From IMG/VR virus record IMGVR_UViG_2506381017_000002: a stretch of DNA of 27,620 bases, one strand, 5' to 3'. This document shows, piece after piece, positions 1-18,852 of the stretch (its first letter is position 1; every line of letters begins with the position of its first letter). A model generated the notes under the pieces. That model was not told where the DNA came from. It made no database searches and was given only the letters and a program-made list of their open reading frames with translations. The DNA comes from a virus (taxonomy: Duplodnaviria > Heunggongvirae > Uroviricota > Caudoviricetes). The position numbers and the translations under genes were made by a program.

Positions 1-1
1 G

Positions 2-1717
2 TATAACGATATGCTTTCGATGGCAATTAACTATGCTAGAGGTGCGCGTAATGAAGTTGGAGCTATTGATGTTAAATACAATGTATCTGTTGAATCTGAC
101 AAGATTGAAGTTCCTAACCTTACTCATAACCAAGAGTATGTACAGTCCTCAATTGCTTATCAGAAAGAAATGAATGAATTAAAGGCTGAGTACAACCGTT
201 TAATGGGCGAAGCTAATACTGCTGAACAAAAAGAAGCAATTAATTCTGAAATGATCTATAAGCAATTAGAACTCCAGGAAAAAGTTTACAAGTCCATGAT
301 TGAGGCCGATCAAAAGGCGATCAATGATTTACGTGAACAAGCTAAGAATCCAGATATGACTACTGAACAGCTTAAAACGATAACCGACCAAATTACAGAG
401 TATGAAAAAAATGTTATTGATGCCCAAAATAGCATTAAGGACGTTGTTAAGAATCGTTTTGAGTATGAAAAGTCTCTTATTGATAAGCAAATTGATGAGT
501 ATAAACGTGCCAGCGACACAATAAGTACTTTAGTAAGTATTGCTGATACCCTTCATTTAGAAGGTTCTACTCAAGCCGCTATTATAAATCAGCAATATGC
601 CTCCACTTACCGTGAGTACAATAATTACCTTGATTTACTCCAAAGACTTCGAAATGAATTATCTGGATACGAAAAGAATTCCTACGAATACAATCAATTG
701 AAGGCAATGATTGATGAATATCAAACTTCGCTTGATAGCACAATGTCTTCGCTTATGGATATAAGCAAAAATGAGTTTGGCCAGACTCTTGATTCCATTC
801 AAAAGGAATTTGAAAAGAGTGTTAACAAGGGAATGACCGCTGATCAGGCTAAGTTCGACCAAGATGTATGGTATAACCCCATGCAAAAAGAACTTCGCCT
901 TGAGGAAATGCGGTTAAAGATTGTTGAGTTGGAAGATAAGACGGTTGAAAAACGTATAGCTGCTCTCGACGCCCAAGAGAGAATGTCTAAGGCGGAAGCT
1001 GATTACGTTGACAAGCAACTTGATTTGGCACTTGCTCAACAAAAACTTGATAACACTATAAATAAAAAAGACGTCCGTTACCTTGAAAAAGATAAGGACG
1101 GCAAGTTTAACTGGACATACATTGCTGACCAAGCAAATGTAGAAGAGGCACAAAGAGCTGTCAACTCTGCAAAACAAGCTCTTGAAGAGTCAAAGATTTC
1201 CAATCGAAATGATTACATTCAAAAAGTCAGTGAAACTATTAATAGTATTAAAGACGGTTCGATTAATCAGGAAGAAGCTCGGAAACGTCTCGAACAGTTA
1301 AATGATTCATATAAGTTTATTCTTAAGGACATTCCTACTTTTGATATTGCAAAAGTTGAGGATGTCATCAAAGCCTACAATGACTATGAAAAGAAGAATA
1401 GCGACATATTAAATGATTACAAACGAAGCGTTAAGCCAGAGGTAACACAAGGCTATGAAACAATCGTTAAAGGATTTGGAGATCAGTTTAAAGCTGTATC
1501 AAAAGATCTAGGTGAGATTTTCGGAAAGCAGCTAAGAGAAGCTCTTAATCTACCAAGTGGCATTCGTAATGCATATGGTAATGGAAATGATAGATCATTA
1601 GTAATTAATGGTGGACTTACCATTAAGCTCCCTAATGTTAAAGACGCTGACGGTTTTACAGAAGCGATGAAGAATCTTCCCCAATTAGCTCAACAATACG
1701 CGACTAAGAAATTGTAA
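2..1717 (+). CDS. Tail tape measure protein, C-terminal part (5'-truncated by the window edge)
   Basis: Frame is open from base 2; long helical/coiled-coil sequence; C-terminal 'SLVINGGLTIKLPNVKDADGF..AM..L.Q.A.QY' ending typical of TMPs of large Firmicutes siphophages; lies directly upstream of tail genes. Confidence 0.8.
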   Translation, partial: YNDMLSMAINYARGARNEVGAIDVKYNVSVESDKIEVPNLTHNQEYVQSSIAYQKEMNELKAEYNRLMGEANTAEQKEAINSEMIYKQLELQEKVYKSMIEADQKAINDLREQAKNPDMTTEQLKTITDQITEYEKNVIDAQNSIKDVVKNRFEYEKSLIDKQIDEYKRASDTISTLVSIADTLHLEGSTQAAIINQQYASTYREYNNYLDLLQRLRNELSGYEKNSYEYNQLKAMIDEYQTSLDSTMSSLMDISKNEFGQTLDSIQKEFEKSVNKGMTADQAKFDQDVWYNPMQKELRLEEMRLKIVELEDKTVEKRIAALDAQERMSKAEADYVDKQLDLALAQQKLDNTINKKDVRYLEKDKDGKFNWTYIADQANVEEAQRAVNSAKQALEESKISNRNDYIQKVSETINSIKDGSINQEEARKRLEQLNDSYKFILKDIPTFDIAKVEDVIKAYNDYEKKNSDILNDYKRSVKPEVTQGYETIVKGFGDQFKAVSKDLGEIFGKQLREALNLPSGIRNAYGNGNDRSLVINGGLTIKLPNVKDADGFTEAMKNLPQLAQQYATKKL

Positions 1718-1722
1718 TCATA

Positions 1723-1753
1723 TTGACCGAGGTTAAAACCTTGGTTGTACATA
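1723..1753 (+). promoter_or_regulatory. Hairpin + GTACATA element, copy 1
   Basis: GACCGAGGTT-AA-AACCTTGGTT stem (with G-U pairs) followed by GTACATA; intergenic; near-copy at 2368-2399. Confidence 0.6.
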
Positions 1754-1822
1754 ACTTCTTATTCATTTTCTATAAAAGGTATGTCATCATATTAAAGACA
1801 CTTATCTAATGGAGGAATTGAA

Positions 1823-2344
1823 ATGAATAAAGTAAAAGTGTTTATTGTAAATCATAAACTTATTACTGTCGTATGTTTTTTTATTTTGATATATGCGATA
1901 GCAGGTGGACTATATTTAGCTGATCAACATAGAAAACAACAGGAATTTTATGATGAACACCCCTTAGTTAATAAGGTTTATAAGTCTCATGTCTTAGAGA
2001 AGCCAGCTGAGGGTGATTGGACTACTACAGACTCGTACTATATTTTTGGAAATAATGAATATAGAGATAAAGTTATTGAAATTTTCCAAGATGAGGGAGG
2101 ATTGAAGAGAGTAAAAGAAATAATGAATGATGAAAATGAATATAAAAAAGAATTTGAGTCTAATACCTCCGAAAAATATATAGTTGAAGATGGAAATAAA
2201 TTAATCATTGGTGATAATCCCGAAAATGTCTATTCTCACCAAGTAAAAGATGGTGAGAATTGGGTTGGAATGTATAATCCCGATAATAAAAATGAAGAAG
2301 AACCTGGTGAAATCCATAAGACTACACCAGTAAATATAGACTAA
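1823..2344 (+). CDS. N-terminally membrane-anchored acidic protein (moron-like; superinfection-exclusion candidate)
   Basis: GGAGG SD before ATG; basic N-terminus followed by hydrophobic LITVVCFFILIYAIAGGLYLA; E/D-rich soluble part; interrupts the tail operon. Function is inference. Confidence 0.75.
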   Translation: MNKVKVFIVNHKLITVVCFFILIYAIAGGLYLADQHRKQQEFYDEHPLVNKVYKSHVLEKPAEGDWTTTDSYYIFGNNEYRDKVIEIFQDEGGLKRVKEIMNDENEYKKEFESNTSEKYIVEDGNKLIIGDNPENVYSHQVKDGENWVGMYNPDNKNEEEPGEIHKTTPVNID

Positions 2345-2367
2345 TTCATAACATAAACATATTTTAT

Positions 2368-2399
2368 TTGACCAAGGACACTCTTCTTGGTTGTACATA
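2368..2399 (+). promoter_or_regulatory. Hairpin + GTACATA element, copy 2
   Basis: TTGACCAAGGA-CACTC-TTCTTGGTT-GTACATA; intergenic once the next gene is started at TTG 2431. Confidence 0.6.
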
Positions 2400-2430
2400 T
2401 CAAAGAATAAAAAGAAAGGAGCTGAATTGG

Positions 2431-4062
2431 TTGACGCAACCAATACTAAATCAGGCGTCTAATTACGATGCGAAGAACTCATATACATTCACATTTACGT
2501 ATTTGGGCGCAGAGCATACGACAACGAATACATTATCAATTCGTGAAGATGGTCCAGGAACAAAACCTGTCTACGAAAAGGATCAAGTGTCGCTAGATAA
2601 AAACCACATTTTACCAGCAAAAACTCTGAACAATGGTACGGCATATCTAGCAAAAGTTCGCGTTAAACTCAAAGATGGCTATTCTGAGTGGTCACCAGAG
2701 ATTAAATTTACGTGTTATACAACACCACGAATTCTATTTGATACGATTGACCAACATCAATTTATCTATACGAATGATGTATTAATGTCGGCTATTTATA
2801 CGCAAGCACAAAATGAGCCTGTTACGTCATATCAATATACTCTTTACGATCAAAGACATGTTGCTTTAGTTAAATATCCAATTCGGAAGCCGGAAAGAAA
2901 TTCTCCAACAAGATTTTCAGAACGTGTTTCAAATATAAAAAAAGGTAAATTATATTACATTGGATTGAAGGTAGTAACAGAGCACGGAATTATTTATGAG
3001 CAACTTCAAGAATTTACCGCTCAATATATCACGCCATCTGTATCGGGTATTATTCAGCCAACAATGAATAAAGATGACGGACAAATAGTTGTTGACCTTT
3101 TCCTAAAACAATTGTTAGGAACGTCAGCTCGTGCTTACATTCCTCATCGTAAAAATGATAATGCTGATAACTATACATATTGGAAAGATGATTATGTCTT
3201 TGTCCCAAAAGAAAACCCTTTGATTTATACCAAGTTAGCGATGGCGAAAGCGAGTGATTGGATCGGAAAGTTCTGGGTAATGAATGTTCAGAATGGATTA
3301 TTCCTAGACTTCTCGCCAGCCGAAGATAGAGGACAGCATATAAAGTTCTATAAACATGATGATTATATTACCTGTGAAAAAGAATTTGGACAGATTAAAT
3401 CCAGAACACGGTCTAATGTAATTAAGGATTTAAAACTGCGTCCTTTCTATATGTTTGTATATGTTAAGGAATATCGAGTTGAAATAAAGATAGTTCCTGA
3501 TCAGACATTCAAAGATGATGATTGGAATGAAGAGTTATCCAAAGAAGAATTGTCTCAGTACGGTGAAATAACTAAAGAAACTCAACAAATGATAGATGCA
3601 GCAGAAGCGAAAATTAACGCTGCAAGACAAAGGCTTCAACAAATCCACGATGAACATTGGCAACAATACATCACCAAGGTAGAGCAAGCAATATCAGACG
3701 CTAGAGCACGTATTTTAGGGCAAAATGAACTACGCGATCGAGTGATGGAAATTGACGACCAATATTGGGACTACTTTGAAAATACTGAAATGGTCAACTA
3801 CTGGAAAGAATTAGCAAAGGCGGAACGTGAGTCCGAAGCCAAGTATGAAATCTATCGTACCGAATATGAGCAAAGAATTAATGAAACTTTATCAGAAATT
3901 AAAAGTGGTGCTATGACGCTTGATGATGGACGTTTGAAGTTAACTCAATATAGCCTTGTGTATAGCTTTATTTTACGTGAAGTCATTGATTTTAACGATA
4001 CGAAGCTAACATTAGATGGACTTCAAGAGCTCTACGATGAATATTTACAAAAATATAAATAG
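2431..4062 (+). CDS. Tail-tip structural protein (N-terminal FN3/Ig-like beta domains, C-terminal TMP-like helical segment)
   Basis: Start revised from 2368 to TTG 2431 (AAAGGAG SD 9 nt upstream), giving 543 aa; 'LNNGTAYLAKVRVK...YSEWS' is an FN3-like signature; position right after the TMP. Confidence 0.7.
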   Translation: MTQPILNQASNYDAKNSYTFTFTYLGAEHTTTNTLSIREDGPGTKPVYEKDQVSLDKNHILPAKTLNNGTAYLAKVRVKLKDGYSEWSPEIKFTCYTTPRILFDTIDQHQFIYTNDVLMSAIYTQAQNEPVTSYQYTLYDQRHVALVKYPIRKPERNSPTRFSERVSNIKKGKLYYIGLKVVTEHGIIYEQLQEFTAQYITPSVSGIIQPTMNKDDGQIVVDLFLKQLLGTSARAYIPHRKNDNADNYTYWKDDYVFVPKENPLIYTKLAMAKASDWIGKFWVMNVQNGLFLDFSPAEDRGQHIKFYKHDDYITCEKEFGQIKSRTRSNVIKDLKLRPFYMFVYVKEYRVEIKIVPDQTFKDDDWNEELSKEELSQYGEITKETQQMIDAAEAKINAARQRLQQIHDEHWQQYITKVEQAISDARARILGQNELRDRVMEIDDQYWDYFENTEMVNYWKELAKAERESEAKYEIYRTEYEQRINETLSEIKSGAMTLDDGRLKLTQYSLVYSFILREVIDFNDTKLTLDGLQELYDEYLQKYK

Positions 4063-4079
4063 TAAAGAGGTGAGAGTTT

Positions 4080-5120
4080 TTGATTATAGGTGTCGATTAT
4101 TTTAATTATGGATTTGACCAACAATTTTATGATACTCCTATTCCAACTTCTGAGATTGACGAGGTTATGATGGGGGCCGGAATGTATGATGAAATGTTCA
4201 TTAGTGTGGATACAACTTTAGATGATTCACAAACCAAACCAGCTCAATGGAATCTGAAAACTATTATGGACGCTAAGTTCAATAATTCTCTTGAAGCTGG
4301 GAGTATTGACGGAGCTGGTCATATTGTCACCAAAATACAATGTTATCGTCGAGAATACATGAGCACGAATACGGATTGGCAATTAGTAGCGCAATTTGAT
4401 TATGATGACCATTATAACCTTTATACGGTAGTTGATAGATTCATTGAAAATGGCAAAACATATGAATATGCAGTTGTTCCATTAGCCAATGAAATTCAAG
4501 GTGACTTACAAGTTGGCCCACCAATTGATAGCAAGTTTTATGGCTCCTTTATTTCTAATCTAGGTTCGAATTATTCAATGAACATCGACTTCAAGTTCTC
4601 GGATTTAGTTTGGAATTCTAACACGAGTACCAGTGTGCCGCTTAATGGTCAATATCCAATAGTGACGTTTGGAAATGCAAACTATCGAACTGGTACAGTT
4701 TCGTTCTTACCACTTACTCCGCAACAAGAATTTGGTTATGAAAACGAAATTGATCCACACGCCGAATACATTAATAGAACTAATGTTATTGACTTCCTTA
4801 ATGATGGACAAACAAAGGTAATTCGTCGTGAAGATGGAGATATTATTGTTTGTGCAACACATAATATTAAAACTACTCCGAAAGATGAAAGTCTTGAAGC
4901 TATTTCTACGGTAACATTTGATTTCACTGAAATAGGTAAATTAGATTACAACACCATGGAAAAAGCGGGATTAATTGCTGATGCAGGTAAATCTGTCTAC
5001 ACATACGATGAAGATGGGAATATTAAGTGGAATCAGGAATATATTGCTGAAGATGGTTCTATTCAATCTAGAACTAGATATAGAAATTCATTCTTATATG
5101 AACGAGACAATTTAAAGTAA
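4080..5120 (+). CDS. Tail-tip / distal-tail-type structural protein
   Basis: TTG start with GAGGTG SD; FN3-like 'VVDRFIENGKTYEYAVVP'; synteny within the tail module. Confidence 0.6.
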   Translation: MIIGVDYFNYGFDQQFYDTPIPTSEIDEVMMGAGMYDEMFISVDTTLDDSQTKPAQWNLKTIMDAKFNNSLEAGSIDGAGHIVTKIQCYRREYMSTNTDWQLVAQFDYDDHYNLYTVVDRFIENGKTYEYAVVPLANEIQGDLQVGPPIDSKFYGSFISNLGSNYSMNIDFKFSDLVWNSNTSTSVPLNGQYPIVTFGNANYRTGTVSFLPLTPQQEFGYENEIDPHAEYINRTNVIDFLNDGQTKVIRREDGDIIVCATHNIKTTPKDESLEAISTVTFDFTEIGKLDYNTMEKAGLIADAGKSVYTYDEDGNIKWNQEYIAEDGSIQSRTRYRNSFLYERDNLK

Positions 5121-5132
5121 GAGGGATAAAGT

Positions 5133-7229
5133 ATGCCACTGAAATACAAAAAGCCCAATTACAATGAAACGTTATCGAATATTGTAAATGGACTTGAAGA
5201 AAAAGTAAGTGGTCGAGCAGCAAGTGTTTTACGACAACCAATTCGCAACCTTCAAACAACTATTCAAGTGTTGGATAATGATGGCTCCATAATTGATACT
5301 ATTACTGGAAAAACAACTGGTGGAACTATTAATTATGATGCAACTTCATTGATACGACGAACGGGAACTTTGAAGATGGTTGTTGATCCTTCATATATGC
5401 CAAACAACAAAAGTGTTTTTTGGTTCGATAAGAAGTTTAGAGTCTATCAAGGAGTTGTTGATTTATCTCGTTTCCCCAGAGAGGCAGTTAACTTTTTGCT
5501 AGGAACGTTTTGGGTTAACGAATCCTCTCTACGTTTTGATAAAACAACACGTGAAATATCAGTTACATTAGCTGACAAAATGACCTTATGGGACGGCCAA
5601 GGACTAGAAAATAAACTCAAAATAAAGCGTGGAACTCCTATGAGTGATGCTATTAGGGGAATCATGGAATTAGTGGGAGAAACAGATTTTGGGTATATGT
5701 ACACCAGTAATGGTGAAGAAATACTTCAGTACGATTACGAAAAGGAACCGGGAACTTCAATCAATGATATCATTGAAGACTTTCGTGATATGTACATGGA
5801 TTTTATCTGTGGATATAATTCTCTTGGTCAATTTGAGTATCGGAAGTTGCCTATTCAAAAGGAAGAAGAAATTCCTAAGCCTAAATGGGAATTTGATGCA
5901 ACTTCACAAGATAGAGCAGATCTCACCTTATCATTTCAAGAAAGCTACGACTTAAAGAATGTTAAGAACAGATTTGTTGTTATTGGGTCCACATCAACCA
6001 AAACAGGCTATACACCTAAAGGTTCAGTAAAAATTACTGATACAAATAGCGAGTTTAATATAGATGCTATCGGAACTAGAACAAAAGTTATCCAAAATAG
6101 TGATCTAACAAATGATCTACAGTGTGTATCTCAAGCACGATATGAAATGTGGAAAGCTGCACACTTCCAAGAAAAAGTAAGCATTGATGTTTCTCCAGTT
6201 TACTTCTTGCAACCCAATGATATTATTCTGGTCACCAATCCTGTAACAAAAAAAGTATATCAGTACATGATTGATACTATTCAAATTGACTTAGCTGTCG
6301 ATGGAATTATGTCAATTGACGCTCATAAAATGTACTTTGTTAAGCCGGATTATGGTGAGGCAGATATGCCAATTGTGGCGGCTATCAAAAATGGTATCAA
6401 TAAATTAGGCTGGTTGTCACTTCCAGAAGAAAGAATTAAGGATACGTATGGTATTTCCGCCGATGGAAAGAATTACTTGAGTATACGATTCGTCGTTGAT
6501 GAAGAAGGTGGATGGCAAGCAGAAACAACTGCGTATAACACTTCCAGAAATCAAACACTAGAAATCGACCTTCGAGATTTTGAAAAGCTCAATCTTAAGG
6601 ATGAAAATGGTGACGTTGGTAGATCTAAAGGTGATTATGCAGATCGTGTACTCGGACATGAAATGTTTCATGCAGTATGTAACGATTTCTATGGTGCTGT
6701 TAAAACGATGGATATGCCTGTGTGGTTCAAAGAAGGCTTTGCGGAATTGCTTCATGGTGGAAAAGATCGTTATGTAACGATAACGGGATTTGAAAACAGG
6801 GAAGCTAAGAAGCAAGCATTAATTAAGCGAGCTAGAAACCAACTAAACGGAACATGGGAGAGTACATCAGATGACTATGTAGCCGCGTATCTTATTGCTT
6901 GTGCTATGTATTATTTGGCTGGAGACTTAAAAGGTATTCATGACATGTTTCAGCGACTAGAAAAAGAAAGTAACTTAAATTTGAACTTTCTGTACAAAGC
7001 ATTACCTATTACTGAATCGGCAGGTCAAATCTTCGATAAGGTAATTGATGAAATGCAAAAGATGCCAATTTGGGATTTCTTAAATGACCCCACAGATGTA
7101 GACACATGTTCTATTGGTGGAAATCATATGCTTAATCTATATGGCAGACCGCTTAGTCCAGAAGATGTGTTTAACAATCAGACGGCAACAACTGATTCAT
7201 TAGGATTCAAAATTAAGTTTGACGAGTAG
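5133..7229 (+). CDS. Tail hub/endopeptidase-like protein fused to a C-terminal flagellinolysin-like zinc metallopeptidase (gluzincin)
   Basis: N-terminal ~400 aa resembles phage tail-hub proteins (TRT-type 'RRTGTL', 'LADKM', 'GYNSLGQFEY'); C-terminal domain has H509-EMF-H513 plus E534 in 'PVWFKEGFAELLHGG'. Confidence 0.75.
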   Translation: MPLKYKKPNYNETLSNIVNGLEEKVSGRAASVLRQPIRNLQTTIQVLDNDGSIIDTITGKTTGGTINYDATSLIRRTGTLKMVVDPSYMPNNKSVFWFDKKFRVYQGVVDLSRFPREAVNFLLGTFWVNESSLRFDKTTREISVTLADKMTLWDGQGLENKLKIKRGTPMSDAIRGIMELVGETDFGYMYTSNGEEILQYDYEKEPGTSINDIIEDFRDMYMDFICGYNSLGQFEYRKLPIQKEEEIPKPKWEFDATSQDRADLTLSFQESYDLKNVKNRFVVIGSTSTKTGYTPKGSVKITDTNSEFNIDAIGTRTKVIQNSDLTNDLQCVSQARYEMWKAAHFQEKVSIDVSPVYFLQPNDIILVTNPVTKKVYQYMIDTIQIDLAVDGIMSIDAHKMYFVKPDYGEADMPIVAAIKNGINKLGWLSLPEERIKDTYGISADGKNYLSIRFVVDEEGGWQAETTAYNTSRNQTLEIDLRDFEKLNLKDENGDVGRSKGDYADRVLGHEMFHAVCNDFYGAVKTMDMPVWFKEGFAELLHGGKDRYVTITGFENREAKKQALIKRARNQLNGTWESTSDDYVAAYLIACAMYYLAGDLKGIHDMFQRLEKESNLNLNFLYKALPITESAGQIFDKVIDEMQKMPIWDFLNDPTDVDTCSIGGNHMLNLYGRPLSPEDVFNNQTATTDSLGFKIKFDE

Positions 7230-7276
7230 ATTTTATTGAGGAGGACATTAATACATATGAGAGGAAGTTGTATTAA

Positions 7277-8011
7277 ATGTCGAGATCTACTTTTCCGCAA
7301 AAGATAGATGTATTTAGAGAATTATTTGATCTTCCGGCAAATCAAGTTGCAAATGCACTAGAATTGCAGAGATTAAAACAAAAGACAACACTAACAAATG
7401 ATGAACAAAACCAAATTTCCGCATTAAGCGCCCAACTACAAGATTATATGATTACGCCTGAAACCATGAATAAACTTCAGGACGCAATTGTAGAAATCGA
7501 AACATTCTTTGATGGGAATGTAAGAAAGTACATCCTTGAAAAGCAGAAAGAATGGGATACCTATGTCAATGATTTTGATTATATAGGCGAATGGGACGCA
7601 ACGAAGAAATTTAAGAAACATAATCTTATAACATATCAAGGTGCATTATATATTGTTACAAAAGATGTGGTAGCGGATAGGCAACATACACCAGATAATG
7701 ATTCCGATCATTATCGGCCTGCATCTAGTAAGGGTGACAAAGGTGATATAGGATTAAATGCTATTTTTAAGGGTGAATGGAATGGAGCAACTAGCTATAA
7801 GGCTGGTGATGCCGTGTCTGTTCGTGAAGGTCAAAGTTGGCGCCCATTAGATTTAGTATTTATTGCTAAAAAAGATAATCAAGGTCAAAAGCCAACAATA
7901 GGCGCTGCAAGCGATTATTGGTTCCCATATCATAATTTAATTGTTGTTCCTAAAGAATATGCTAACTATAAATTTCATCCAGATATTCATCGAATCCAGA
8001 TAGTTGATTAG
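7277..8011 (+). CDS. Baseplate/tail-fibre adaptor with two short carbohydrate-binding-like beta repeats
   Basis: 'YIGEWDATKKFKKHNLITYQGALY' and 'FKGEWNGATSYKAGDAV' repeats; 'MSRSTFP..ID.F' N-terminus recalled from large Firmicutes phage tail genes. Confidence 0.55.
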   Translation: MSRSTFPQKIDVFRELFDLPANQVANALELQRLKQKTTLTNDEQNQISALSAQLQDYMITPETMNKLQDAIVEIETFFDGNVRKYILEKQKEWDTYVNDFDYIGEWDATKKFKKHNLITYQGALYIVTKDVVADRQHTPDNDSDHYRPASSKGDKGDIGLNAIFKGEWNGATSYKAGDAVSVREGQSWRPLDLVFIAKKDNQGQKPTIGAASDYWFPYHNLIVVPKEYANYKFHPDIHRIQIVD

Positions 8012-10546: not shown

Positions 10547-12055
10547 ATGGGAAAAAGACGAACACCTGAACAGTATGTTGAAGATGTTAAAGCGATACAT
10601 GGCGAAAAATATACAATTACTACACCTTTCATCAATATGAAGACAAAAGTAATGGTTTTATGTAATGATTGTGGTCATGAATGGTTAGTAGAGCCAAGCA
10701 GTCTCTTGAAAGGTTATGGTTGTCGCAAATGTGGTATACAAAATAGAAAACCTCGAAAAACAAATGACGAATTCTGTTCTCAAGTAAAGAATTTATGGGG
10801 AAATGAATATGTGTTTCTAGATAACTATGTTAATGCAACAACCAAAATTAGGTGTCTTCATTCTATATGTGGCACTATTTGGAAGGTTACTCCTAAGAGT
10901 TTTCTTCATAATAAAAAGGGTGGTTGTCCAACTTGTGCTTATGGTAAATCTCAGCAAGAATTCACAAAAGAAATAAAGAATCTAGTTGGGGACGAATATT
11001 CTTTCATAGAAACGTATATAGGAGACGGTTCTAAAATCCTATGTCGTCACAATATTTGTGGATATGAATGGAAAACTAAACCCAACACATTCTTAAATGG
11101 AAGTAGGTGTCCAAACTGCTTCGGTTCAAAAAGAAAAAGCACAATTCAATTTCAAAATGAGCTCGATCAACTTTATCCGGGAGAGTATGAAGTTTTAGGT
11201 GAATATAAAACTGCACATACCAAAATAAAGGTTCGTCATGTTCCCTGCGACTATACCTGGGAGATTAAGCCTAATGCAATATTGATTAAAAAGAGATGTC
11301 CGAGGTGTTCTATGCGAAAACAAGTTGTACGACAAACTAGACCGTATGACGATTTTGTGCGAGAGGTACATCAAAAATATGGCAACGCTTATATTGTAGA
11401 TAATTATCAAGGGCGTCATAAAAAACTTAAGGTGACTCATAAAGAATGTGGTTATTTATGGGAAACATATGGAAGTACTTTGCTCTCGGGCGTTGGGTGC
11501 CCTCGTTGTGCAGGCATCATAAAAACATCAGACGACTTTATAGCTCAGTTATCGGCATTGGTAGGGAGGGAGTATAGAGTAGTAGGCGAGTATTCAAAGA
11601 TGAGTGAAAAAGTAAAAATAAAACACGAAAAATGTGGTTATTTATGGCAAGTTACTCCGATGAATTTTATACGTGGAACCAGATGTCCAAGATGTAGAAA
11701 ATCCCACGGGGAATTAGCTATTGAAGCTTGGCTAAATAGTAAAAACTATGGCTATATTCCTCAGAAGAAATTTGCAGACTGTAAAGATCAGCGTTCACTC
11801 CCATTTGATTTTTATCTTCCCGATTATAATTTGGTCATTGAGTATGATGGAAGACAGCATTTTCAGAGTTGCGATTATTTTGGTGGAGAGGAAAAATTTA
11901 ATCTCCAACACAAACATGATTTAATCAAAAACAAATACTGCGAAGATAATAATATTAATCTATTACGTATTCCGTACACTGTTACCGGAGAAGATATCGG
12001 CAGGGCAATTCAGAACAGATTAGATGAATTAACACAACTCGATAACGTTGCTTAA
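10547..12055 (+). CDS. Free-standing endonuclease: six Zn-ribbon repeats + Vsr/DUF559-like PD-(D/E)XK domain (homing endonuclease-like)
   Basis: Six ~62-70 aa repeats with (H/C)xxC-G-x-x-W...CxxC; C-terminal 'LPFDFYLPDYNLVIEYDGRQH'. Confidence 0.8.
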   Translation: MGKRRTPEQYVEDVKAIHGEKYTITTPFINMKTKVMVLCNDCGHEWLVEPSSLLKGYGCRKCGIQNRKPRKTNDEFCSQVKNLWGNEYVFLDNYVNATTKIRCLHSICGTIWKVTPKSFLHNKKGGCPTCAYGKSQQEFTKEIKNLVGDEYSFIETYIGDGSKILCRHNICGYEWKTKPNTFLNGSRCPNCFGSKRKSTIQFQNELDQLYPGEYEVLGEYKTAHTKIKVRHVPCDYTWEIKPNAILIKKRCPRCSMRKQVVRQTRPYDDFVREVHQKYGNAYIVDNYQGRHKKLKVTHKECGYLWETYGSTLLSGVGCPRCAGIIKTSDDFIAQLSALVGREYRVVGEYSKMSEKVKIKHEKCGYLWQVTPMNFIRGTRCPRCRKSHGELAIEAWLNSKNYGYIPQKKFADCKDQRSLPFDFYLPDYNLVIEYDGRQHFQSCDYFGGEEKFNLQHKHDLIKNKYCEDNNINLLRIPYTVTGEDIGRAIQNRLDELTQLDNVA

Positions 12056-12125: not shown

Positions 12126-13424
12126 TTGCTTAATAAATTTCTAAAGAAGATGTTAATGGTAGCAGTAACTATCATTATGGTTGCCCCTGTATTAGCAGGG
12201 GTCGCAAGTGCCGATGGAAGATCATATGGACCAGACCTATCCAAATATCAAGGTGCATATGCCAGCAAGCCGTATACGCGTGACCAATTCGCAATTGCAC
12301 AAGTTGGTGGATACGTAAATGGTTATTTCTATGACCAATGGACATATCCAACACAAATTAGTTCAGGTATTGCTAATGGGTTGAGAATGCACACTTATAT
12401 TTGGTATCAAGTTGGTGGAAATGCTCAATTGGGGAAGCAGGTTGTAGATCATTTTCTACCAAAGATCCAAGCGCCTAAGGGGTCGATCATTGCATTAGAT
12501 TATGAAGATGGAGCATCTTGGGACAAGAATGCTAACACAGAAGCCATTTTAGCAGGTATGCGTGAAATTAAGGCGGCAGGATACGTTCCAATGTATTACA
12601 GTTATAAGCCGTACACCTTGGCTCACGTTGACTATAATCGTATTATTGCTGAATTCCCTAACTCTGGATGGATTGCAGCATACCCAGATTACAATGTTCG
12701 TACAGAACCATACTGGGGTGTATTCCCTTCACTTCCAGGAATTAGTATCTACCAATTTACAAGCACATATCGTGCTGGTGGTTTAGACGGTAATATTTCA
12801 TTAGCACCTAATGGTCATGACATTACTATGAGCGGTTACGTCAATGGGAATTCACAAAAGCCAAAGACCGAAACTCCTGCAACGGAACAAGGTAAGCAAA
12901 TTCATAAAGATACTCATAACTACACTGTAAAGCCAAATGATAGCTGGTGGGCAATAGCAAATCGTTATGGCATGGAAATGAACGCTTTAGCACAACTGAA
13001 TGGCAAGACCATCAATGATGTAATTCACCCAGGTCAAGTTATTCGTGTTGCTGATAAAGGAGATGGTCAATCTGTTTCAAACAAGGTTAACACCACCCCC
13101 GCACAACCATCAAATAATACTCAATACTACACTGTACAACCAAATGATACGCTCTCAGGTATCGCTACAAAATTTGGGACAACATATCAATCAATCGCAT
13201 TCCTTAACAGAATTGATAATCCAAATTGGATTTATCCTGGTCAGCGACTAAAAATTAATAGGGCGACTCAAAATAACAGTTCTAACAGAGTACACTATGT
13301 GCGTTACGGTGAAACACTAAGCGGCTTGAGTTATTCTCTTGGAGTTAATTACCAGACACTGTTAAGCAAAAATAATATAGCTAATCCTAATTTTATTCGT
13401 GTAGGTCAGGCCATTTACTACTAA
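12126..13424 (+). CDS. Endolysin: signal peptide + GH25 muramidase + 3 LysM
   Basis: TTG start with GGGAG SD; KK + hydrophobic stretch + 'ASA|D' cleavage motif; GH25 motifs 'PDLSKYQG', 'ALDYEDG', 'GLDGN'; three LysM repeats (YTVKPNDSWWAIA, YTVQPNDTLSGIA, HYVRYGETLSGLS). Confidence 0.92.
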   Translation: MLNKFLKKMLMVAVTIIMVAPVLAGVASADGRSYGPDLSKYQGAYASKPYTRDQFAIAQVGGYVNGYFYDQWTYPTQISSGIANGLRMHTYIWYQVGGNAQLGKQVVDHFLPKIQAPKGSIIALDYEDGASWDKNANTEAILAGMREIKAAGYVPMYYSYKPYTLAHVDYNRIIAEFPNSGWIAAYPDYNVRTEPYWGVFPSLPGISIYQFTSTYRAGGLDGNISLAPNGHDITMSGYVNGNSQKPKTETPATEQGKQIHKDTHNYTVKPNDSWWAIANRYGMEMNALAQLNGKTINDVIHPGQVIRVADKGDGQSVSNKVNTTPAQPSNNTQYYTVQPNDTLSGIATKFGTTYQSIAFLNRIDNPNWIYPGQRLKINRATQNNSSNRVHYVRYGETLSGLSYSLGVNYQTLLSKNNIANPNFIRVGQAIYY

Positions 13425-13446: not shown

Positions 13447-14247
13447 ATGAAAGAAATTTGGAAAGATATAGAAGAATTTGAGGGATATTATCAAATCTCT
13501 AATTTGGGACAAGTTAAAAGTATGGATAGAGATGTTATTTATAGCAATGGGGTTATTCGACATTACGAAGAAAGAATTAGGACCCCAGTAACAGATAAGA
13601 ATGGATATTTGATGGTAACGTTAAATAAAAGTTCTAAAAGTTATCCTAAAAGAGTACATCAGCTTGTTGCCAGAGCGTTTATTCCCAATCCAGATAATTT
13701 ACCATCAATTAATCATATTGACGAAGATAAGACAAACAATCGAGTGGATAATTTAGAATGGTGTTCGGTTTACTATAACAATCATTATAATGGTAGATAT
13801 GAACGAATAAAGCGCTATCCCAAGTCGGTTTGCTTGTTTAATGTTGTAAATGGTGAGGTAATAAAAATCGAGTCTATATCTGAGGCTGCTCGTAGGCTGC
13901 ACGGGTCCGCCGGAAATATTGAAGAAGTGATAGATGCAAAAGGAAGGACTTTTAAGGGGTGGATGATATTTTCTGAACGCAATTTTAATGGCTTAGCTAT
14001 TAAACAGAGTTTGGAGGAATATAATAAACATCGCCCTAGGGGTATTGTCGTTGAATTTATTGACACCGAAGATAAAAGGTTCTATGCGACCGAAAATGAA
14101 TTCTGTCACGAATATAATGAGCATCCAGGTAGCATAAACACGTATTTAAGAAATAACAGAGATGTATTCAAAAATAAATACGTTATACGATACGCTCTCC
14201 CATTTGAGGAGTCTAAATATCAAAATGGGCAGTTGCTAGATTATTGA
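13447..14247 (+). CDS. NUMOD4-HNH homing endonuclease
   Basis: NUMOD4 'EIWKDIEEFEGYYQISNLGQVKS'; HNH 'VHQLVARAF...INHIDEDKTNNRVDNLEWC'; NUMOD1-like 'SISEAARRL'. Confidence 0.9.
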   Translation: MKEIWKDIEEFEGYYQISNLGQVKSMDRDVIYSNGVIRHYEERIRTPVTDKNGYLMVTLNKSSKSYPKRVHQLVARAFIPNPDNLPSINHIDEDKTNNRVDNLEWCSVYYNNHYNGRYERIKRYPKSVCLFNVVNGEVIKIESISEAARRLHGSAGNIEEVIDAKGRTFKGWMIFSERNFNGLAIKQSLEEYNKHRPRGIVVEFIDTEDKRFYATENEFCHEYNEHPGSINTYLRNNRDVFKNKYVIRYALPFEESKYQNGQLLDY

Positions 14248-14424: not shown

Positions 14425-17400
14425 ATGAGATATTTAACAACATATCTTGACGATGAAATTAATTTCAAGTTTGGCAATAATGGCTCAATCATTGAGTTGA
14501 AAGCTGTTGATGACCATGCGGTTATGAGTTTCTCAAACGAAGAAAAACTCCTCATTCGTATTAAGAATGAGGAATCATATATCAAAACGGTGCCCGTTAC
14601 TGCCGAACGTAAGATTATTCAACTCCCTACCAAGTTATTAAAAGACCTAACGGTAGGTCAGTACGATGTTGAGTTATGGCAAGGCGAAGGTGACGATCAA
14701 GTTATCTATCCTGACGAAGGATTCCTTAGATTAAAGATTCATGGCAACGCATCACAAATTGATGGTAGCTTGGTTTCTTCTATTACTCTTGCTGATTTTG
14801 AAAAGAAGTTTAATGAACTAGCTCAAAAGATTGAGGATAAATTAGAGAAATTACCAGATATCGATGGGAAGAATATTAGCATCGATGTGAAAGTAGTTGA
14901 TGGCAACCTTTGTATTAACGGCAAAGATACAGGAATTAACCTAACTGCCAAGGATGGTAGGGACGGAAGAGATGGACATACGCCAGAAATCACTGTATCA
15001 GATGCAGGTACACTTGTTGTTGATGGAATTGACACTAATAAATCTTTAATCGGTCCTAGAGGTGAGAATGGACTTCCGGGTAAGGATGGAGTTGCTGGTC
15101 AAGATGGTAAATCTGCCTATCAAGTAGCTGTCGATAATGGGTTTGATGGGACAGAAGTCGAATGGTTACGCTCATTGCATGGAAATGATGGCCTTGATGG
15201 AAAGTCAGGTAGAGACGGACTTCCAGGACAGAGTGGTAAATCTGCCTATGAGATAGCTATCGCAAACGGGTTTATGGGAACTGAAACTGAATGGCTAGAA
15301 TCCCTCAAAGGTAAGGATGGGCGAGATGGTAATGACGCTAATGTCGATTTATCTGAATTCTTAACTAAAGAAACTGCGAATTCAGAATATGCTAAAAAGA
15401 ATGATGTTCCTCTTATCGTATATGATGCAGAAAACAATACTCTAACTATCAATGGTCAAAAGGTAGAAATACCTTCTCAAGTAGATTTGTCTAGTTATGT
15501 TACCAAGACTGATGCAGATAAATATGCTTTAAAATCTGATGTAAAGAATATTGTCCTTGATAAAAATGAAAGAACTTTAACTGTTGGAAAAGAATCAATT
15601 AATATTCCTAATAATATTGACCTTTCTCCTTATTACACTAAAGAAGAAATTGATAAGAAGTTAACTGACATTGCGACAAATGGAAAGGTTGACCTTACTG
15701 GTTATCTTAGACAGAGTGATTTAACGGATTACGCTAAGAAATCAGATATCCCAAGTCAACCAGACCTTACTCCATATGCTAAAAAGTCAGAGCTACCCAA
15801 GATTTCAATAGACGTTGAGAAACGAACGCTTACTTTAAACGATAGTGTTATCAATATTCCAGATAGTGTTGACTTAACTGACTATGCTAAAAAATCAGAA
15901 ATTCCAAGTATCGTATTAGACACGGAAACTAATACCCTAACCATTAACGGAACAAAAGTAGTTATTCCAGGTAATGTTGACCTCACTCATTACTACACTA
16001 AAGGAGAAATTGATGAAAAAATAGCTGATATTCAATCTGGCGGAAAAATTGATTTAAGTAATTATGTCAATAAGCAAGAACTTTCTGATTATGCTAAGAA
16101 AGCAGATATTCCTGAAACGCCTGACTTAACTCCTTATGAGACTAAAGAGAATGCAGATAAGACTTATGCTACTAAGAAAGCGTTGGAAGATATTCAACTC
16201 ACTCCCGGAAAAGATGGGAAGAATGGTAAGTCTGCTTATGATTTGGCGGTAGAAGCTGGTTTTGAGGGTAGCGTAGACGAATGGTTACAATCACTACATG
16301 GAGCCAATGGTAAAGATGGCCGAGACGGAGCTAATGGTCATGATGGAGCCAAAGGTCAGGACGGACAAAACGGTAAGAGTGCCTATGAGATCGCCATTGC
16401 TAATGGTTTTAAAGGAACGGAAGAAGAATGGCTCAATTCTCTTAAAGGTCGTGATGGTTCCAATGGAGCCTCTGGACGAAACGGGGCTGATGGAAAGAAC
16501 GGAGTAGACGGATTAAGCGCTTATGAATTAGCTAAAAAGAACGGATTCCAAGGAACTGAGCAAGAATGGTTAGGTTCACTTAAAGGTGAACAAGGACATG
16601 ATGGTATTCAGGGCCCTAAAGGAGATGCTGGTGAAAGAGGCCCACAAGGGTTCCCGGGGAAGGATGGATCAGATGGTAAGGATGGCGCTCAAGGGCCAGC
16701 TGGGGCTAACGGAAAAGATGGTCAATCCACATACCAATTATGGCTATCCAAAGGAAATACTGGTAGCGAAGAGGACTTCTTAAACTCTCTTAAGGGTGCT
16801 AAAGGAGACCAAGGTGCCCCTGGTAAAGATGGTGCTCCTGGGGTTAAAGGTGATACCGGAGAAAGAGGGCCTCAAGGGGAACGTGGAGAAACTGGTTTAC
16901 AAGGTCCTGCTGGTCCTAAAGGAGATATTGGTAATGTTGGCCCACAAGGCCCTAAAGGAGATAAAGGTGATACAGGTCCACAAGGACCTAAAGGGAATAC
17001 AGGGGATCGAGGTCCACAAGGTGTAGCAGGAAAAGATGGTCATTCTGTTTGGTATAATAGAATGCACTATAGTCCTAACGGACAACTACAGTGGTTTACA
17101 GATTTGACTAACGCAAGTGCTTCTAACCCACCTAAAGTTAATGATATTATGATTAATGCTGACGGTAATATTGCAATGATTACTAAGGTCAATATTACTA
17201 ATGATGCAGGTGAAGGTGGAGGAACGTTTAACTATGGTCCTTGGATTGGTAACATCAAGGGTCCCACTGGCCCTCAAGGTCCACAAGGATTAAATGGGAA
17301 AGATGGACTTTCAGCTTATGAGATTGCTAAACGAAATGGATTCACTGGAACTGAAAAAGAATGGTCGGACTCTTTACAGAATCAAAGTTTTAATAAAACG

Positions 17401-18852
17401 ACTATAAATAAAATATTTGATAAATACTCAAATAAGTTTCATATCAATATGCCAGATAATGGTTTCCTAAATGATGTGCAAGGGGCATTCTATCGCAATG
17501 GTATATGGCATATGTATTTCCTGTATAATGCTGACGCAAAATATAACTCAAATGGCGACCAAATAGGTGGAAATGGAACTGAATGGTACCATGTTACCAC
17601 GAAAGATTGGGTGAAATGGAATTATGAAGGTGTCGCAATTCATAAATACAAAACCGCCTGGGGAGACGTTGCTTCTGGAACTATTTATATTGATTTTGAT
17701 AATCGTTTTGGCAAAGGTAAAGACGCAGTTATTGTATTTGCTACAGCCTATGGCGGTGACAAGGGTCAGAATGTAATGGGGTATTACTCAACAGATAACG
17801 GTTACACATTTAGTCCATTGCAGACAGATCCAATTCTTCGACATGTCGGTGGATCAGATACCAATTTCAGAGATCCATACTTATTTAGAATGGGAGATAC
17901 ATGGGTTATATACATGGCTGAGGGAGATAAATTTGGAATTTATACTTCAAACAATCCTCTGTCTGGATATAACTATATTGATGGCTATTTTGCGCCACAC
18001 GCATTGTTAGAATGTCCATCGCTGTTTAAGTTAAATGTAAATGGAAATCAAAATAATCAAAAATGGGTATTATTCTATGGGGGTAATGGTGGAGATGATG
18101 CTACTACGGGAACTTATGCTTCTGTAGGGTATTTAACAGATAAATATGCATTCAAAGCTGAGCAGGAAAATATTCGTGTTGATTATGGTCCCGATTTTTA
18201 CGGTGCAAAAATGTTTTCAAATGAATTTGGCAATAATGATTTCGTATATAGCAATGCATGGATGGGTAATTGGGGATATGCTACCAAAGTTCCAAATGAG
18301 GGCAGAATTGGGGCGATATCTTCAACAAGAAAGATAACATTGAGGCATGACGGAGTAAAGTATTGTTTAAATAATGAAATTGTCGGAGTATTTCCTGATT
18401 ACCTTGATAATCCGATTGTGGGTACAAATCTAAAAACTAATACAGGGCTACCTATGTTTAAAGGCGACAGTTTTTATTTGAAATTTAGAATTAAAGATGT
18501 TCAAAATTTAAATGAAAACATGACGATTAAATTAGTTGGGAATCAATACGATTCTGATATGTTGTTTAACTTTAAGGATAATAATGTTAAAGTTCATCGA
18601 TATAATAGCTCTTTTAATAATAATATCTATGGTAGAGACAGAATATTTAGCACCAATCTTGATAAAGAAAATGATTTGTGGATTGAATTGCTTGTTGACC
18701 GAACTTGTATAGAAATGCGCTTATCTAATGGCGATATTTTTACAATGACAAAATTCCCTGCTGGACGGAGTAGAGAAAATATATGTGTTAGCGCAGATAA
18801 CACAGTCAATTTCGATTATGAATATTATCAAATAATGCCACAAGAGGTGTAG
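14425..18852 (+). CDS. Collagen-like fibre with BppU-like N-terminus and C-terminal GH32 levanase (LevB-like)
   Basis: N-terminal 'YDVELWQG..DQVIYPDEGF' BppU_N-like motif; G-X-Y runs; GH32 motifs ND1017VQ, RD1150P, E1196CP; segments 'GNGTEW', 'EGVAI.KY', 'YSTD.G..F', 'MAEG.K' match B. subtilis LevB as recalled. Confidence 0.85.
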   Translation: MRYLTTYLDDEINFKFGNNGSIIELKAVDDHAVMSFSNEEKLLIRIKNEESYIKTVPVTAERKIIQLPTKLLKDLTVGQYDVELWQGEGDDQVIYPDEGFLRLKIHGNASQIDGSLVSSITLADFEKKFNELAQKIEDKLEKLPDIDGKNISIDVKVVDGNLCINGKDTGINLTAKDGRDGRDGHTPEITVSDAGTLVVDGIDTNKSLIGPRGENGLPGKDGVAGQDGKSAYQVAVDNGFDGTEVEWLRSLHGNDGLDGKSGRDGLPGQSGKSAYEIAIANGFMGTETEWLESLKGKDGRDGNDANVDLSEFLTKETANSEYAKKNDVPLIVYDAENNTLTINGQKVEIPSQVDLSSYVTKTDADKYALKSDVKNIVLDKNERTLTVGKESINIPNNIDLSPYYTKEEIDKKLTDIATNGKVDLTGYLRQSDLTDYAKKSDIPSQPDLTPYAKKSELPKISIDVEKRTLTLNDSVINIPDSVDLTDYAKKSEIPSIVLDTETNTLTINGTKVVIPGNVDLTHYYTKGEIDEKIADIQSGGKIDLSNYVNKQELSDYAKKADIPETPDLTPYETKENADKTYATKKALEDIQLTPGKDGKNGKSAYDLAVEAGFEGSVDEWLQSLHGANGKDGRDGANGHDGAKGQDGQNGKSAYEIAIANGFKGTEEEWLNSLKGRDGSNGASGRNGADGKNGVDGLSAYELAKKNGFQGTEQEWLGSLKGEQGHDGIQGPKGDAGERGPQGFPGKDGSDGKDGAQGPAGANGKDGQSTYQLWLSKGNTGSEEDFLNSLKGAKGDQGAPGKDGAPGVKGDTGERGPQGERGETGLQGPAGPKGDIGNVGPQGPKGDKGDTGPQGPKGNTGDRGPQGVAGKDGHSVWYNRMHYSPNGQLQWFTDLTNASASNPPKVNDIMINADGNIAMITKVNITNDAGEGGGTFNYGPWIGNIKGPTGPQGPQGLNGKDGLSAYEIAKRNGFTGTEKEWSDSLQNQSFNKTTINKIFDKYSNKFHINMPDNGFLNDVQGAFYRNGIWHMYFLYNADAKYNSNGDQIGGNGTEWYHVTTKDWVKWNYEGVAIHKYKTAWGDVASGTIYIDFDNRFGKGKDAVIVFATAYGGDKGQNVMGYYSTDNGYTFSPLQTDPILRHVGGSDTNFRDPYLFRMGDTWVIYMAEGDKFGIYTSNNPLSGYNYIDGYFAPHALLECPSLFKLNVNGNQNNQKWVLFYGGNGGDDATTGTYASVGYLTDKYAFKAEQENIRVDYGPDFYGAKMFSNEFGNNDFVYSNAWMGNWGYATKVPNEGRIGAISSTRKITLRHDGVKYCLNNEIVGVFPDYLDNPIVGTNLKTNTGLPMFKGDSFYLKFRIKDVQNLNENMTIKLVGNQYDSDMLFNFKDNNVKVHRYNSSFNNNIYGRDRIFSTNLDKENDLWIELLVDRTCIEMRLSNGDIFTMTKFPAGRSRENICVSADNTVNFDYEYYQIMPQEV
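15106..17379 (+). repeat. Seven copies of a ~26-aa 'G(K/L/Q)SAY..A..NGF.GTE.EWL.SL.G' module interleaved with collagen G-X-Y tracts
   Basis: Counted in the translation; longest uninterrupted collagen run is 27 triplets at 16795-17040. Confidence 0.85.
15343..16190 (+). repeat. Tandemly duplicated 'LTING..V.IP..VDL..Y.TK / DLT.YAKKSDIP' shaft modules
   Basis: Four '(I/V).D....LT(I/V/L)...I.IP..(V/I)DL' units and two 'YYTK.EID.K..DI...GK.DL..Y' units in the translation. Confidence 0.75.

Follow-up and report, generated by a model that had tools for sequence, protein, structure and literature searches.

Why would a protein of a phage tail tip end in helices that resemble part of the tape measure protein (TMP) encoded upstream of it? 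The question is raised by a stretch of 27,620 nucleotides (nt), hereafter the window, which is the IMG/VR record IMGVR_UViG_2506381017_000002 of a virus of the Caudoviricetes and whose coordinates are used throughout. The window opens inside a TMP gene and contains, further downstream, the gene of a tail protein with a C-terminal extension of 187 residues (3499–4059). A preliminary description of this DNA had read the extension as a diverged, co-linear copy of a 185-residue TMP segment. At the level of sequence, the comparisons described here provide solid grounds for homology between the extension and one unit of ~95 residues near the TMP C terminus (1112–1396); they also change the picture of how the two regions correspond, and they suggest when and in which direction the unit moved.

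Composition-adjusted BLASTP aligned TMP residues 402–452, numbered on the fragment in the window (1205–1357), with nt 3856–4008 of the tail gene at 17 identities in 51 positions (E 3e-7), and returned a second match at a different offset (E 1e-5). The ungapped block of 50 or 51 residues reported in the preliminary description is thus present as written. That description had also proposed alignment against shuffled sequences as a check, and the outcome is clear: the two segments it named reach a Smith–Waterman (SW) score of 115, against 45 ± 8 for composition shuffles (n = 2000) and 46 ± 8 for shuffles within heptad classes, with none of 2000 shuffles attaining 115 and a Gumbel fit giving p ~1e-5. 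When the extension was slid along the 3029-residue TMP of a near-identical relative, the best windows coincided with the region claimed (score 121), and the other ~600 residues of coiled coil in the same protein scored at most 79. Profile–profile comparison by hhalign of 19 extensions with 21 TMP C-termini gave a probability of 98.2% and an E-value of 3.6e-14 over 106 columns, and the residue pairs WTY/WDY and YNDY/YDEY, proposed earlier as anchors, lie inside this alignment.

Helices, charged residues and heptad-like patterns abound in both segments, and one may ask whether coiled-coil composition alone, or chance, could produce the resemblance without common ancestry. Consistent with such an origin, a VIA-align search with the model of the TMP C-terminus retrieved generic helical bundles only (Z ≤ 8.8, below the meaningful level for helical proteins). 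The composition-adjusted search and both kinds of shuffle reject it, however, as does the low score of the remaining TMP coiled coil. The extension profile was also run exhaustively by HMMER against 1.84 billion representative proteins, with a result that argues in the same direction. This search yielded 12 matches, which comprise the family itself with one 70-residue fragment of it, seven TMPs and three short open reading frames (ORFs), and none among unrelated coiled-coil proteins. In the seven TMPs, of 2135–2934 residues, the match lies ~100–235 residues before the C terminus (E 2.7e-11 to 1.7e-4). Each of the three short ORFs is a co-linear piece of a TMP C-terminus. We regard the probability of a chance resemblance as negligible. 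Searches with the extension in Pfam, PHROGs, PDB sequences and the ESM Atlas gave nothing usable, apart from a sub-threshold match to TBCA (E 0.0018) and a ‘Tet4 variant’ without a passing stretch.

How do the two regions correspond? The second BLASTP match pointed to an internal repeat, and both segments were therefore halved and the halves compared. Homology is unsupported for the TMP segment that had been assigned to the N-terminal half of the extension (842–1111, plus strand): TMP residues 276–370 align with extension residues 1–92 at an SW score of 30, compared with 33 ± 6 for shuffles (p 0.66), and hhalign gives E 0.059. Because these N-terminal halves align no better than shuffles, two further anchors of the preliminary description, DQAKFDQDVW..KE with DQTFKDDDW..KE and KKDVRYLEKD with LRDRVMEID, are to be taken as chance. 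The first half of the extension instead aligns with TMP residues 366–470, scoring 88 without gaps at residues 377–437 (p ~4e-6; hhalign E 9e-9), and the second half aligns with the same TMP residues at a score of 106 (p ~2e-8; hhalign E 8.5e-16). A hidden Markov model (HMM) of the first half matches this downstream unit in 14 TMPs, that is, in every TMP tested, the match ending ~130–135 residues from the C terminus. Since both halves match the same TMP unit and the N-terminal TMP segment fails, the extension is a pair of diverged tandem copies of one TMP unit of ~62–95 residues. The helix layouts that AlphaFold2 predicts for the extension and for the TMP unit agree with two copies.

A single co-linear copy of TMP residues 281–465, as first proposed, would account for the local alignment of the complete segments, which extends from one end to the other, and the HMMER envelope in one TMP (P0244) does span profile positions 22–189. 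Yet the alignment score stems wholly from the C-terminal half, and the N-terminal half of the extension, taken by itself, finds the downstream unit in P0244 as in the other TMPs. We find the co-linear copy hardly credible: of the 185/187-residue co-linearity, the C-terminal half is upheld by BLASTP and hhalign and the N-terminal half is lost. Each of the two copies is ~22% identical to TMP units, and they are 14% identical to each other. A tree of the units, built on 61 columns, groups the sequences of copy 1 and those of copy 2 into separate clades, each with support of 100, the placement of these clades relative to the TMPs being unreliable.

The gene that supplies the unit is represented in the window by its last 571 codons and stop (2–1717, plus strand, open at the 5′ end of the window). 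The 571-residue fragment by itself has no Pfam match. In near-identical relatives the full-length protein has ~3029 residues (ORF at L008:7855–16944), and the full-length homologues listed, which are at least 71% identical in the C-terminal 340 residues, all carry PF10145 in precomputed annotation; several of them, from Limosilactobacillus reuteri, are named ‘phage tail tape measure protein’. The corresponding protein of another relative, L011, has PF10145 as well. In L008, L009, L010, L011 and L013 the tail-tip genes are immediately preceded by TMPs of 2730–3168 residues. By the domain in its full-length homologues, by its great length and by its position before the tail-tip genes, the gene at 2–1717 encodes a tape measure protein. 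The source unit (fragment residues 371–465; 1112–1396, plus strand), delimited by hhalign, HMM matches and AlphaFold2, sits ~105–200 residues before the C terminus. It is predicted to follow a β-hairpin and to consist of a long helix, a DGS turn, a second helix, a DIPTFD loop and a third helix, with the helices at residues 146–186, 192–210 and 219–244 of the last 340 (predicted local distance difference test, pLDDT, 70–87).

Other parts of the TMP deserve a brief description. Its length varies among close relatives from 2834 to 3047 residues, and residues ~1700–2010 of the protein encoded at L008:7855–16944 contain obvious tandem repeats, with ~6 copies of a lysine/glycine-rich unit of ~24 residues, followed by ~7 copies of a ‘NISINxSGNA’-type unit of ~30 residues. 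The last ~65 residues (1520–1714) carry the motif ‘L-x-L-P-N-V ... F ... A ... L-P ... A-x-Q’. By eye, this terminal motif and the β-hairpin before the unit are also seen in the 1508-residue TMP of Enterocloster phage PMBT24 (L001:6315–10841), which is otherwise unalignable; the motif may be a widely conserved hub-binding end. The L008 sequence, which is G001:C1:255000–274999 of the nearest genome, G001, has genes that abut exactly from stop to start, all in one frame, and does not have the intergenic DNA seen in the window; this record resembles concatenated coding sequences and not a natural chromosome.

What kind of protein received the unit? The tail gene (2431–4062) most likely starts at the TTG codon at 2431, and not at 2368, because of the lengths of the orthologues, a gene boundary in a relative and a ribosome-binding site, AAAGGAG, at 2414; its product has 543 residues. 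The protein begins with two tandem FN3-like β-sandwich domains (residues 1–198; 2431–3024, plus strand), predicted by AlphaFold2 at pLDDT 80–94 and recognized by Foldseek and VIA-align, the latter superposing 180 residues on fibronectin 6xay with Z 12.1 and a root-mean-square deviation of 3.9, among many tandem-FN3 matches. At the level of sequence the tail protein has no Pfam match at E ≤ 0.01, PF00041 (FN3) included, and its matches in the PDB are weak ones to FN3 domains of cytokine receptors (E 0.007–0.7). A third β domain follows (residues 199–356; 3025–3498, plus strand), defined by AlphaFold2 strands at 264–356, with low pLDDT for residues 200–260, and by an alignment of 76 homologues; it closes with a conserved strand at which every short-form orthologue terminates. 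The preliminary description of the protein as an FN3-type module joined to a TMP-derived domain agrees with these results, the only detectable relatives of the extension among the 1.84 billion proteins being TMP C-termini.

The extension itself begins with an acidic linker and the start of the first long helix (residues 357–384; 3499–3582, plus strand). This is the least conserved part, with a mean identity of 44% among long forms, and it has no significant match to the TMP. Copy 1 (residues 385–445; 3583–3765, plus strand) corresponds, by SW, hhalign and HMM comparison, to a shortened TMP unit with a long helix, a turn and a helix. Copy 2 (residues 446–543; 3766–4059, plus strand) corresponds, by BLASTP, SW and hhalign, to the full unit, with both the FIL+(D/E)(I/V)xxF loop and the final helix. 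AlphaFold2 places helices at residues 367–425, 431–468/470–492, 497–511 and 528–542 (pLDDT about 75–90); the model is not one uninterrupted heptad-repeat helix and shows five helices with turns in a hairpin-like layout. When the models are compared separately, the extension and the TMP unit have the same predicted order of long helix, glycine-containing turn, helix, loop and helix. No internal start or ribosome-binding site from which the extension could be expressed separately was seen at nt 3430–3620.

Was the unit gained by the tail protein or by the TMP? The 119 homologues of the tail protein fall into two classes, long forms of 543–565 residues (52–100% identical) and short forms of 345–386 residues (40–59% identical). 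The extension is present in 18 diverged long forms (52–75% identical overall) and absent from about 45 short forms, which stop at residue ~357, no more than a few residues from the conserved last strand. The comparison of orthologues that had been proposed earlier thus recovers related elements of both kinds. The named long forms come from L. reuteri. The short forms come from Liquorilactobacillus, Enterococcus mundtii, Aerococcaceae, Ligilactobacillus, Vagococcus and Bacillus, and are plasmid-borne in the last three genera. In the phage collection searched, the tail protein matches only the first ~250 residues of a 381-residue protein in Enterocloster phages, among them PMBT24, and this protein is likewise without the extension. 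The TMP encoded beside a short form, in L011, retains the C-terminal region (43% identity) and the unit. Because short forms lack the extension while a TMP beside a short form has the unit, comparison of these sequences indicates that the unit most likely belonged to the TMP from the start and reached the tail protein later, by transfer from the one to the other within the Limosilactobacillus clade.

We propose the following sequence of events. In an ancestor in Limosilactobacillus, a copy of the DNA of the TMP unit would have been joined to the tail gene at its 3′ end, precisely after the last β strand; the unit would have been either copied twice or duplicated in place, and the copies would then have diverged to about 22% identity with the TMP. 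In relatives that do not have the membrane ORF found between the two genes in the window, the source of the unit lies only ~1.5 kb upstream of the insertion point, and local duplication would therefore be a simple origin. Both copies are older than the radiation of the long forms. Gene conversion, or concerted evolution of extension and TMP, was considered and rejected, no extension being closer to its own TMP than to others: the extension of L009, for example, reaches a score of 74 with the TMP of L009 and of 92 with that of the window. A further candidate, a swappable N-terminal anchor, was suggested by proteins of 824 and 837 residues that share only their first ~60–70 residues with the tail protein. 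In the 837-residue case (L012:6001–8514; NZ_CP065541.1 44593–44775) these residues are 98–100% identical and the rest is unrelated. The L012 locus contains a TMP fragment and several transposase genes and is a decayed, rearranged copy of the element; the candidate was rejected on account of this decay and of the interruption by transposases.

Does the extension matter to the proteins that have it? It is an accessory, not an essential, part of this tail design, because short-form elements do without it. Its reading frame is open over 187–206 codons in 18 lineages with the helix–turn pattern kept, and an alignment of sequences down to 41% identity contains 21 invariant columns, among which are H, W, Y and an E-I-D motif, together with 11 that are nearly invariant. 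The mean identity among long forms is 52–59% for the copies and 70–75% for the three domains of the body, and the extension is therefore, judging from these identities, constrained more loosely than the body. One lineage has lost part of it: the form of the Limosilactobacillus mucosae type, which matches an L. mucosae plasmid, has 473 residues and an extension of 123, with copy 2 and the invariant residues of copy 1 gone. Such decay, together with the faster evolution of the extension and its dispensability across most of the family, is what one would expect of a functionless remnant, a local duplication of TMP DNA that persists without a role. Neutral sequence would not, however, keep the frame, the invariant columns and the helix–turn pattern, and for this reason we consider a remnant decidedly unlikely.

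The genomic setting bears on where the protein may act. The window covers the genes for tail tip, lysis and replication of a large phage-plasmid of the siphovirus type. A gene on a non-mobilizable L. reuteri plasmid of 128.8 kb encodes a protein 100% identical to the tail protein, and relatives are carried by plasmids of 108–148 kb in L. mucosae, Ligilactobacillus, Vagococcus and Bacillus. The family is present on non-mobilizable plasmids of 108–188 kb in Limosilactobacillus, Ligilactobacillus, Vagococcus, Bacillus and Clostridium, a widespread and little-studied group of phage-plasmids. Among 50,697 phage records, nt 1–8000 of the window had no DNA match and the C-terminal 571 residues of the TMP no tblastn match. 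Downstream of the TMP gene the order is a 173-residue membrane ORF, the tail protein, a 346-residue protein (4080–5120), a 698-residue hub protein (5133–7229; PHROG ‘tail protein’, DUF5048) and fibre-like genes.

The tail gene is thus not the next gene after the TMP gene in the window. The intervening ORF (1823–2344, plus strand), which lies outside the duplication, encodes, by its translation, a protein with a single membrane helix at the N terminus and an acidic tail. G001 and the decayed locus L012 contain this ORF, and no counterpart exists in L009, L010, L011 and L013, where the tail gene follows ~60 nt after the TMP; the ORF looks like a moron insertion. Two observations concern the surrounding genes. 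In every relative examined, the gene that immediately precedes the giant TMP belongs to the Phage_integrase family (~342–374 residues; L009:1–522, L010:1–1018, L011:672–1796, L008:6826–7854) and occupies the place where tail assembly chaperone genes would normally be expected. Around the lysis gene of the window, HNH/homing-endonuclease genes at 10547–12055 and 13447–14247 flank the gene of a GH25-LysM endolysin (12126–13424).

What might the extension do at the tail tip? FN3 arrays are external decorations of phage tails, and TMPs are taken to be trimers, as in phage T5. We lean slightly towards a tail protein built of two FN3 domains, a β domain and a helical extension of two TMP-unit copies, in which the extension has an accessory role in self-association, as a stalk or in docking. 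In the TMP the unit, a helical hairpin, would pack against its copies in other TMP subunits; on a peripheral FN3 protein it would keep this ability to bundle helices and would form an elongated (~85 Å) antiparallel helical stalk that links neighbouring copies of the tail protein, or else a docking surface at the tail tip. The specific role, bundling of neighbouring copies or provision of a docking surface, is put forward tentatively.

Several observations weigh against this reading. The AlphaFold2 model of the tail protein is a monomer with a predicted template modelling score of 0.37, from which oligomers cannot be read. The place of the protein in the virion is suggested by gene position and FN3 folds only; searches of Pfam and PHROG returned no match to a Dit or baseplate family, and no Dit appears among the listed fold matches, lists that FN3 matches fill and that barely cover residues 199–356. 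Copies 1 and 2 are not monophyletic together in the unit tree, which is compatible with one gain and a duplication or with two gains. A partner for docking did not emerge either: the N-terminal 160 residues of the collagen-like levanase fibre (14425–18852), used as query, were not found in G267, whose extension is 98% identical. The fibre N-termini of L009 and L010 are weakly similar to that of the collagen-like fibre in the window; the extension as a dock for this fibre is not supported.

The extension might instead imitate the TMP, binding the TMP unit or its normal partner, whether a chaperone, the lumen of the hub or a membrane factor of the host encountered once the TMP has been ejected, which would couple an outer tail protein to the tape measure in assembly or DNA delivery. 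The copies are genuinely homologous to a unit that, in the oligomeric TMP, must associate with itself, and the C-terminus of the T5 TMP is a trimeric coil in the cup of the hub and is expelled first on infection (PMC10038345). Contact before ejection would be sterically unlikely, however, between an external FN3 array and a TMP in the lumen of the tube; extensions resemble their own TMP no more than those of other lineages, although this is weak evidence; and short-form elements assemble without the extension. Imitation of this kind is in our judgement unlikely, and so, in its broader form, is the proposal of a functional mimic of the first-ejected TMP region on the exterior of the tail tip, one that either engages the host-envelope or phage partner of the C-terminal TMP unit or serves as a decoy.

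The decoy taken by itself, an exposed TMP-like module that absorbs exclusion or defence proteins aimed at the C-terminal region of the TMP, has a premise in known biology, the TMP being the reported target of Ltp-type exclusion lipoproteins (Bebeacua et al. 2013, as cited in PMC3952083), and in the window a membrane-anchored moron lies directly between the TMP and tail genes. At about 22% identity, though, the residues common to the copies and the TMP are chiefly those of core and turns, so that the copies would be poor mimics of its surface epitopes; the moron, moreover, is absent from other long-form relatives, so that the two features are unlinked. We see in the decoy only a faint prospect.

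Is there a precedent for such an arrangement? Cases are known in which a unit is duplicated inside a TMP gene (Belcaid, Bergeron & Poisson 2011, PMC3271669). As in these cases and in rulers of the Katsura type, a short TMP-coding unit has here been copied locally and has then diverged, and the TMP in question also repeats internally; unlike the known copies, which stay in the TMP gene and alter its length, the unit stands twice on the C-terminus of another tail protein, one whose body is a β-sandwich. In phage T5 the baseplate ring protein p140 arose from the tail tube protein pb6 by gene duplication and is 9% identical to it (Linares et al. 2023, PMC10038345). There too, duplication of all or part of a structural tail gene supplied a neighbouring component of the tip, and the copy has drifted to very low identity (~22% here); p140, however, is a duplicate of a whole gene that keeps its role as a tube ring, whereas here an internal unit of ~95 residues is fused to an unrelated protein. 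The Ltp-type exclusion system (Bebeacua et al. 2013, through its citation in PMC3952083) resembles the present case in the premise of a decoy, the TMP being a target surface during DNA injection, and differs in that the parallel with the extension is only a lead.

Scaffold proteins of the tail tip may also carry added modules. ‘Evolved’ Dit proteins have carbohydrate-binding insertions, and BppU of phage TP901-1, a protein that PMC10038345 also mentions, has an Ig-like N-terminal domain and a helical linker. Like these add-ons, the extension is a clade-specific and dispensable module on a tip protein that occurs in short and extended forms; unlike them, being carbohydrate-binding, Ig-like or independent adaptors, it comes from the TMP of the same phage, and membership of the tail protein in the Dit or BppU families is not implied. 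In a limited full-text search of the literature, no description came up of a tail protein, other than the TMP itself, that carries a module derived from the TMP, in keeping with the statement of the preliminary description that it knew of none.

TMPs are usually viewed as self-contained rulers and injection devices, and little is understood of their C-terminal regions, even though this part leaves the tail first and is targeted by exclusion systems. A unit of this region that has been exported to a probably external protein of the tail tip, and kept there under selection in one host clade, would be an autonomous and reusable module. The related phage-plasmids that have the extension, lack it or carry a degenerate one form a natural comparison that may be used to ask what the unit binds. 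Should it bind a host factor or a defence factor, this would shed new light on the ways in which injection is helped or safeguarded; should the extension prove a mimic or decoy, it would represent a new way for a phage to protect or aid its DNA-injection device with a copy of one of its own parts. If it is only a bundling stalk, it would still be a tidy case of tinkering with tail genes.

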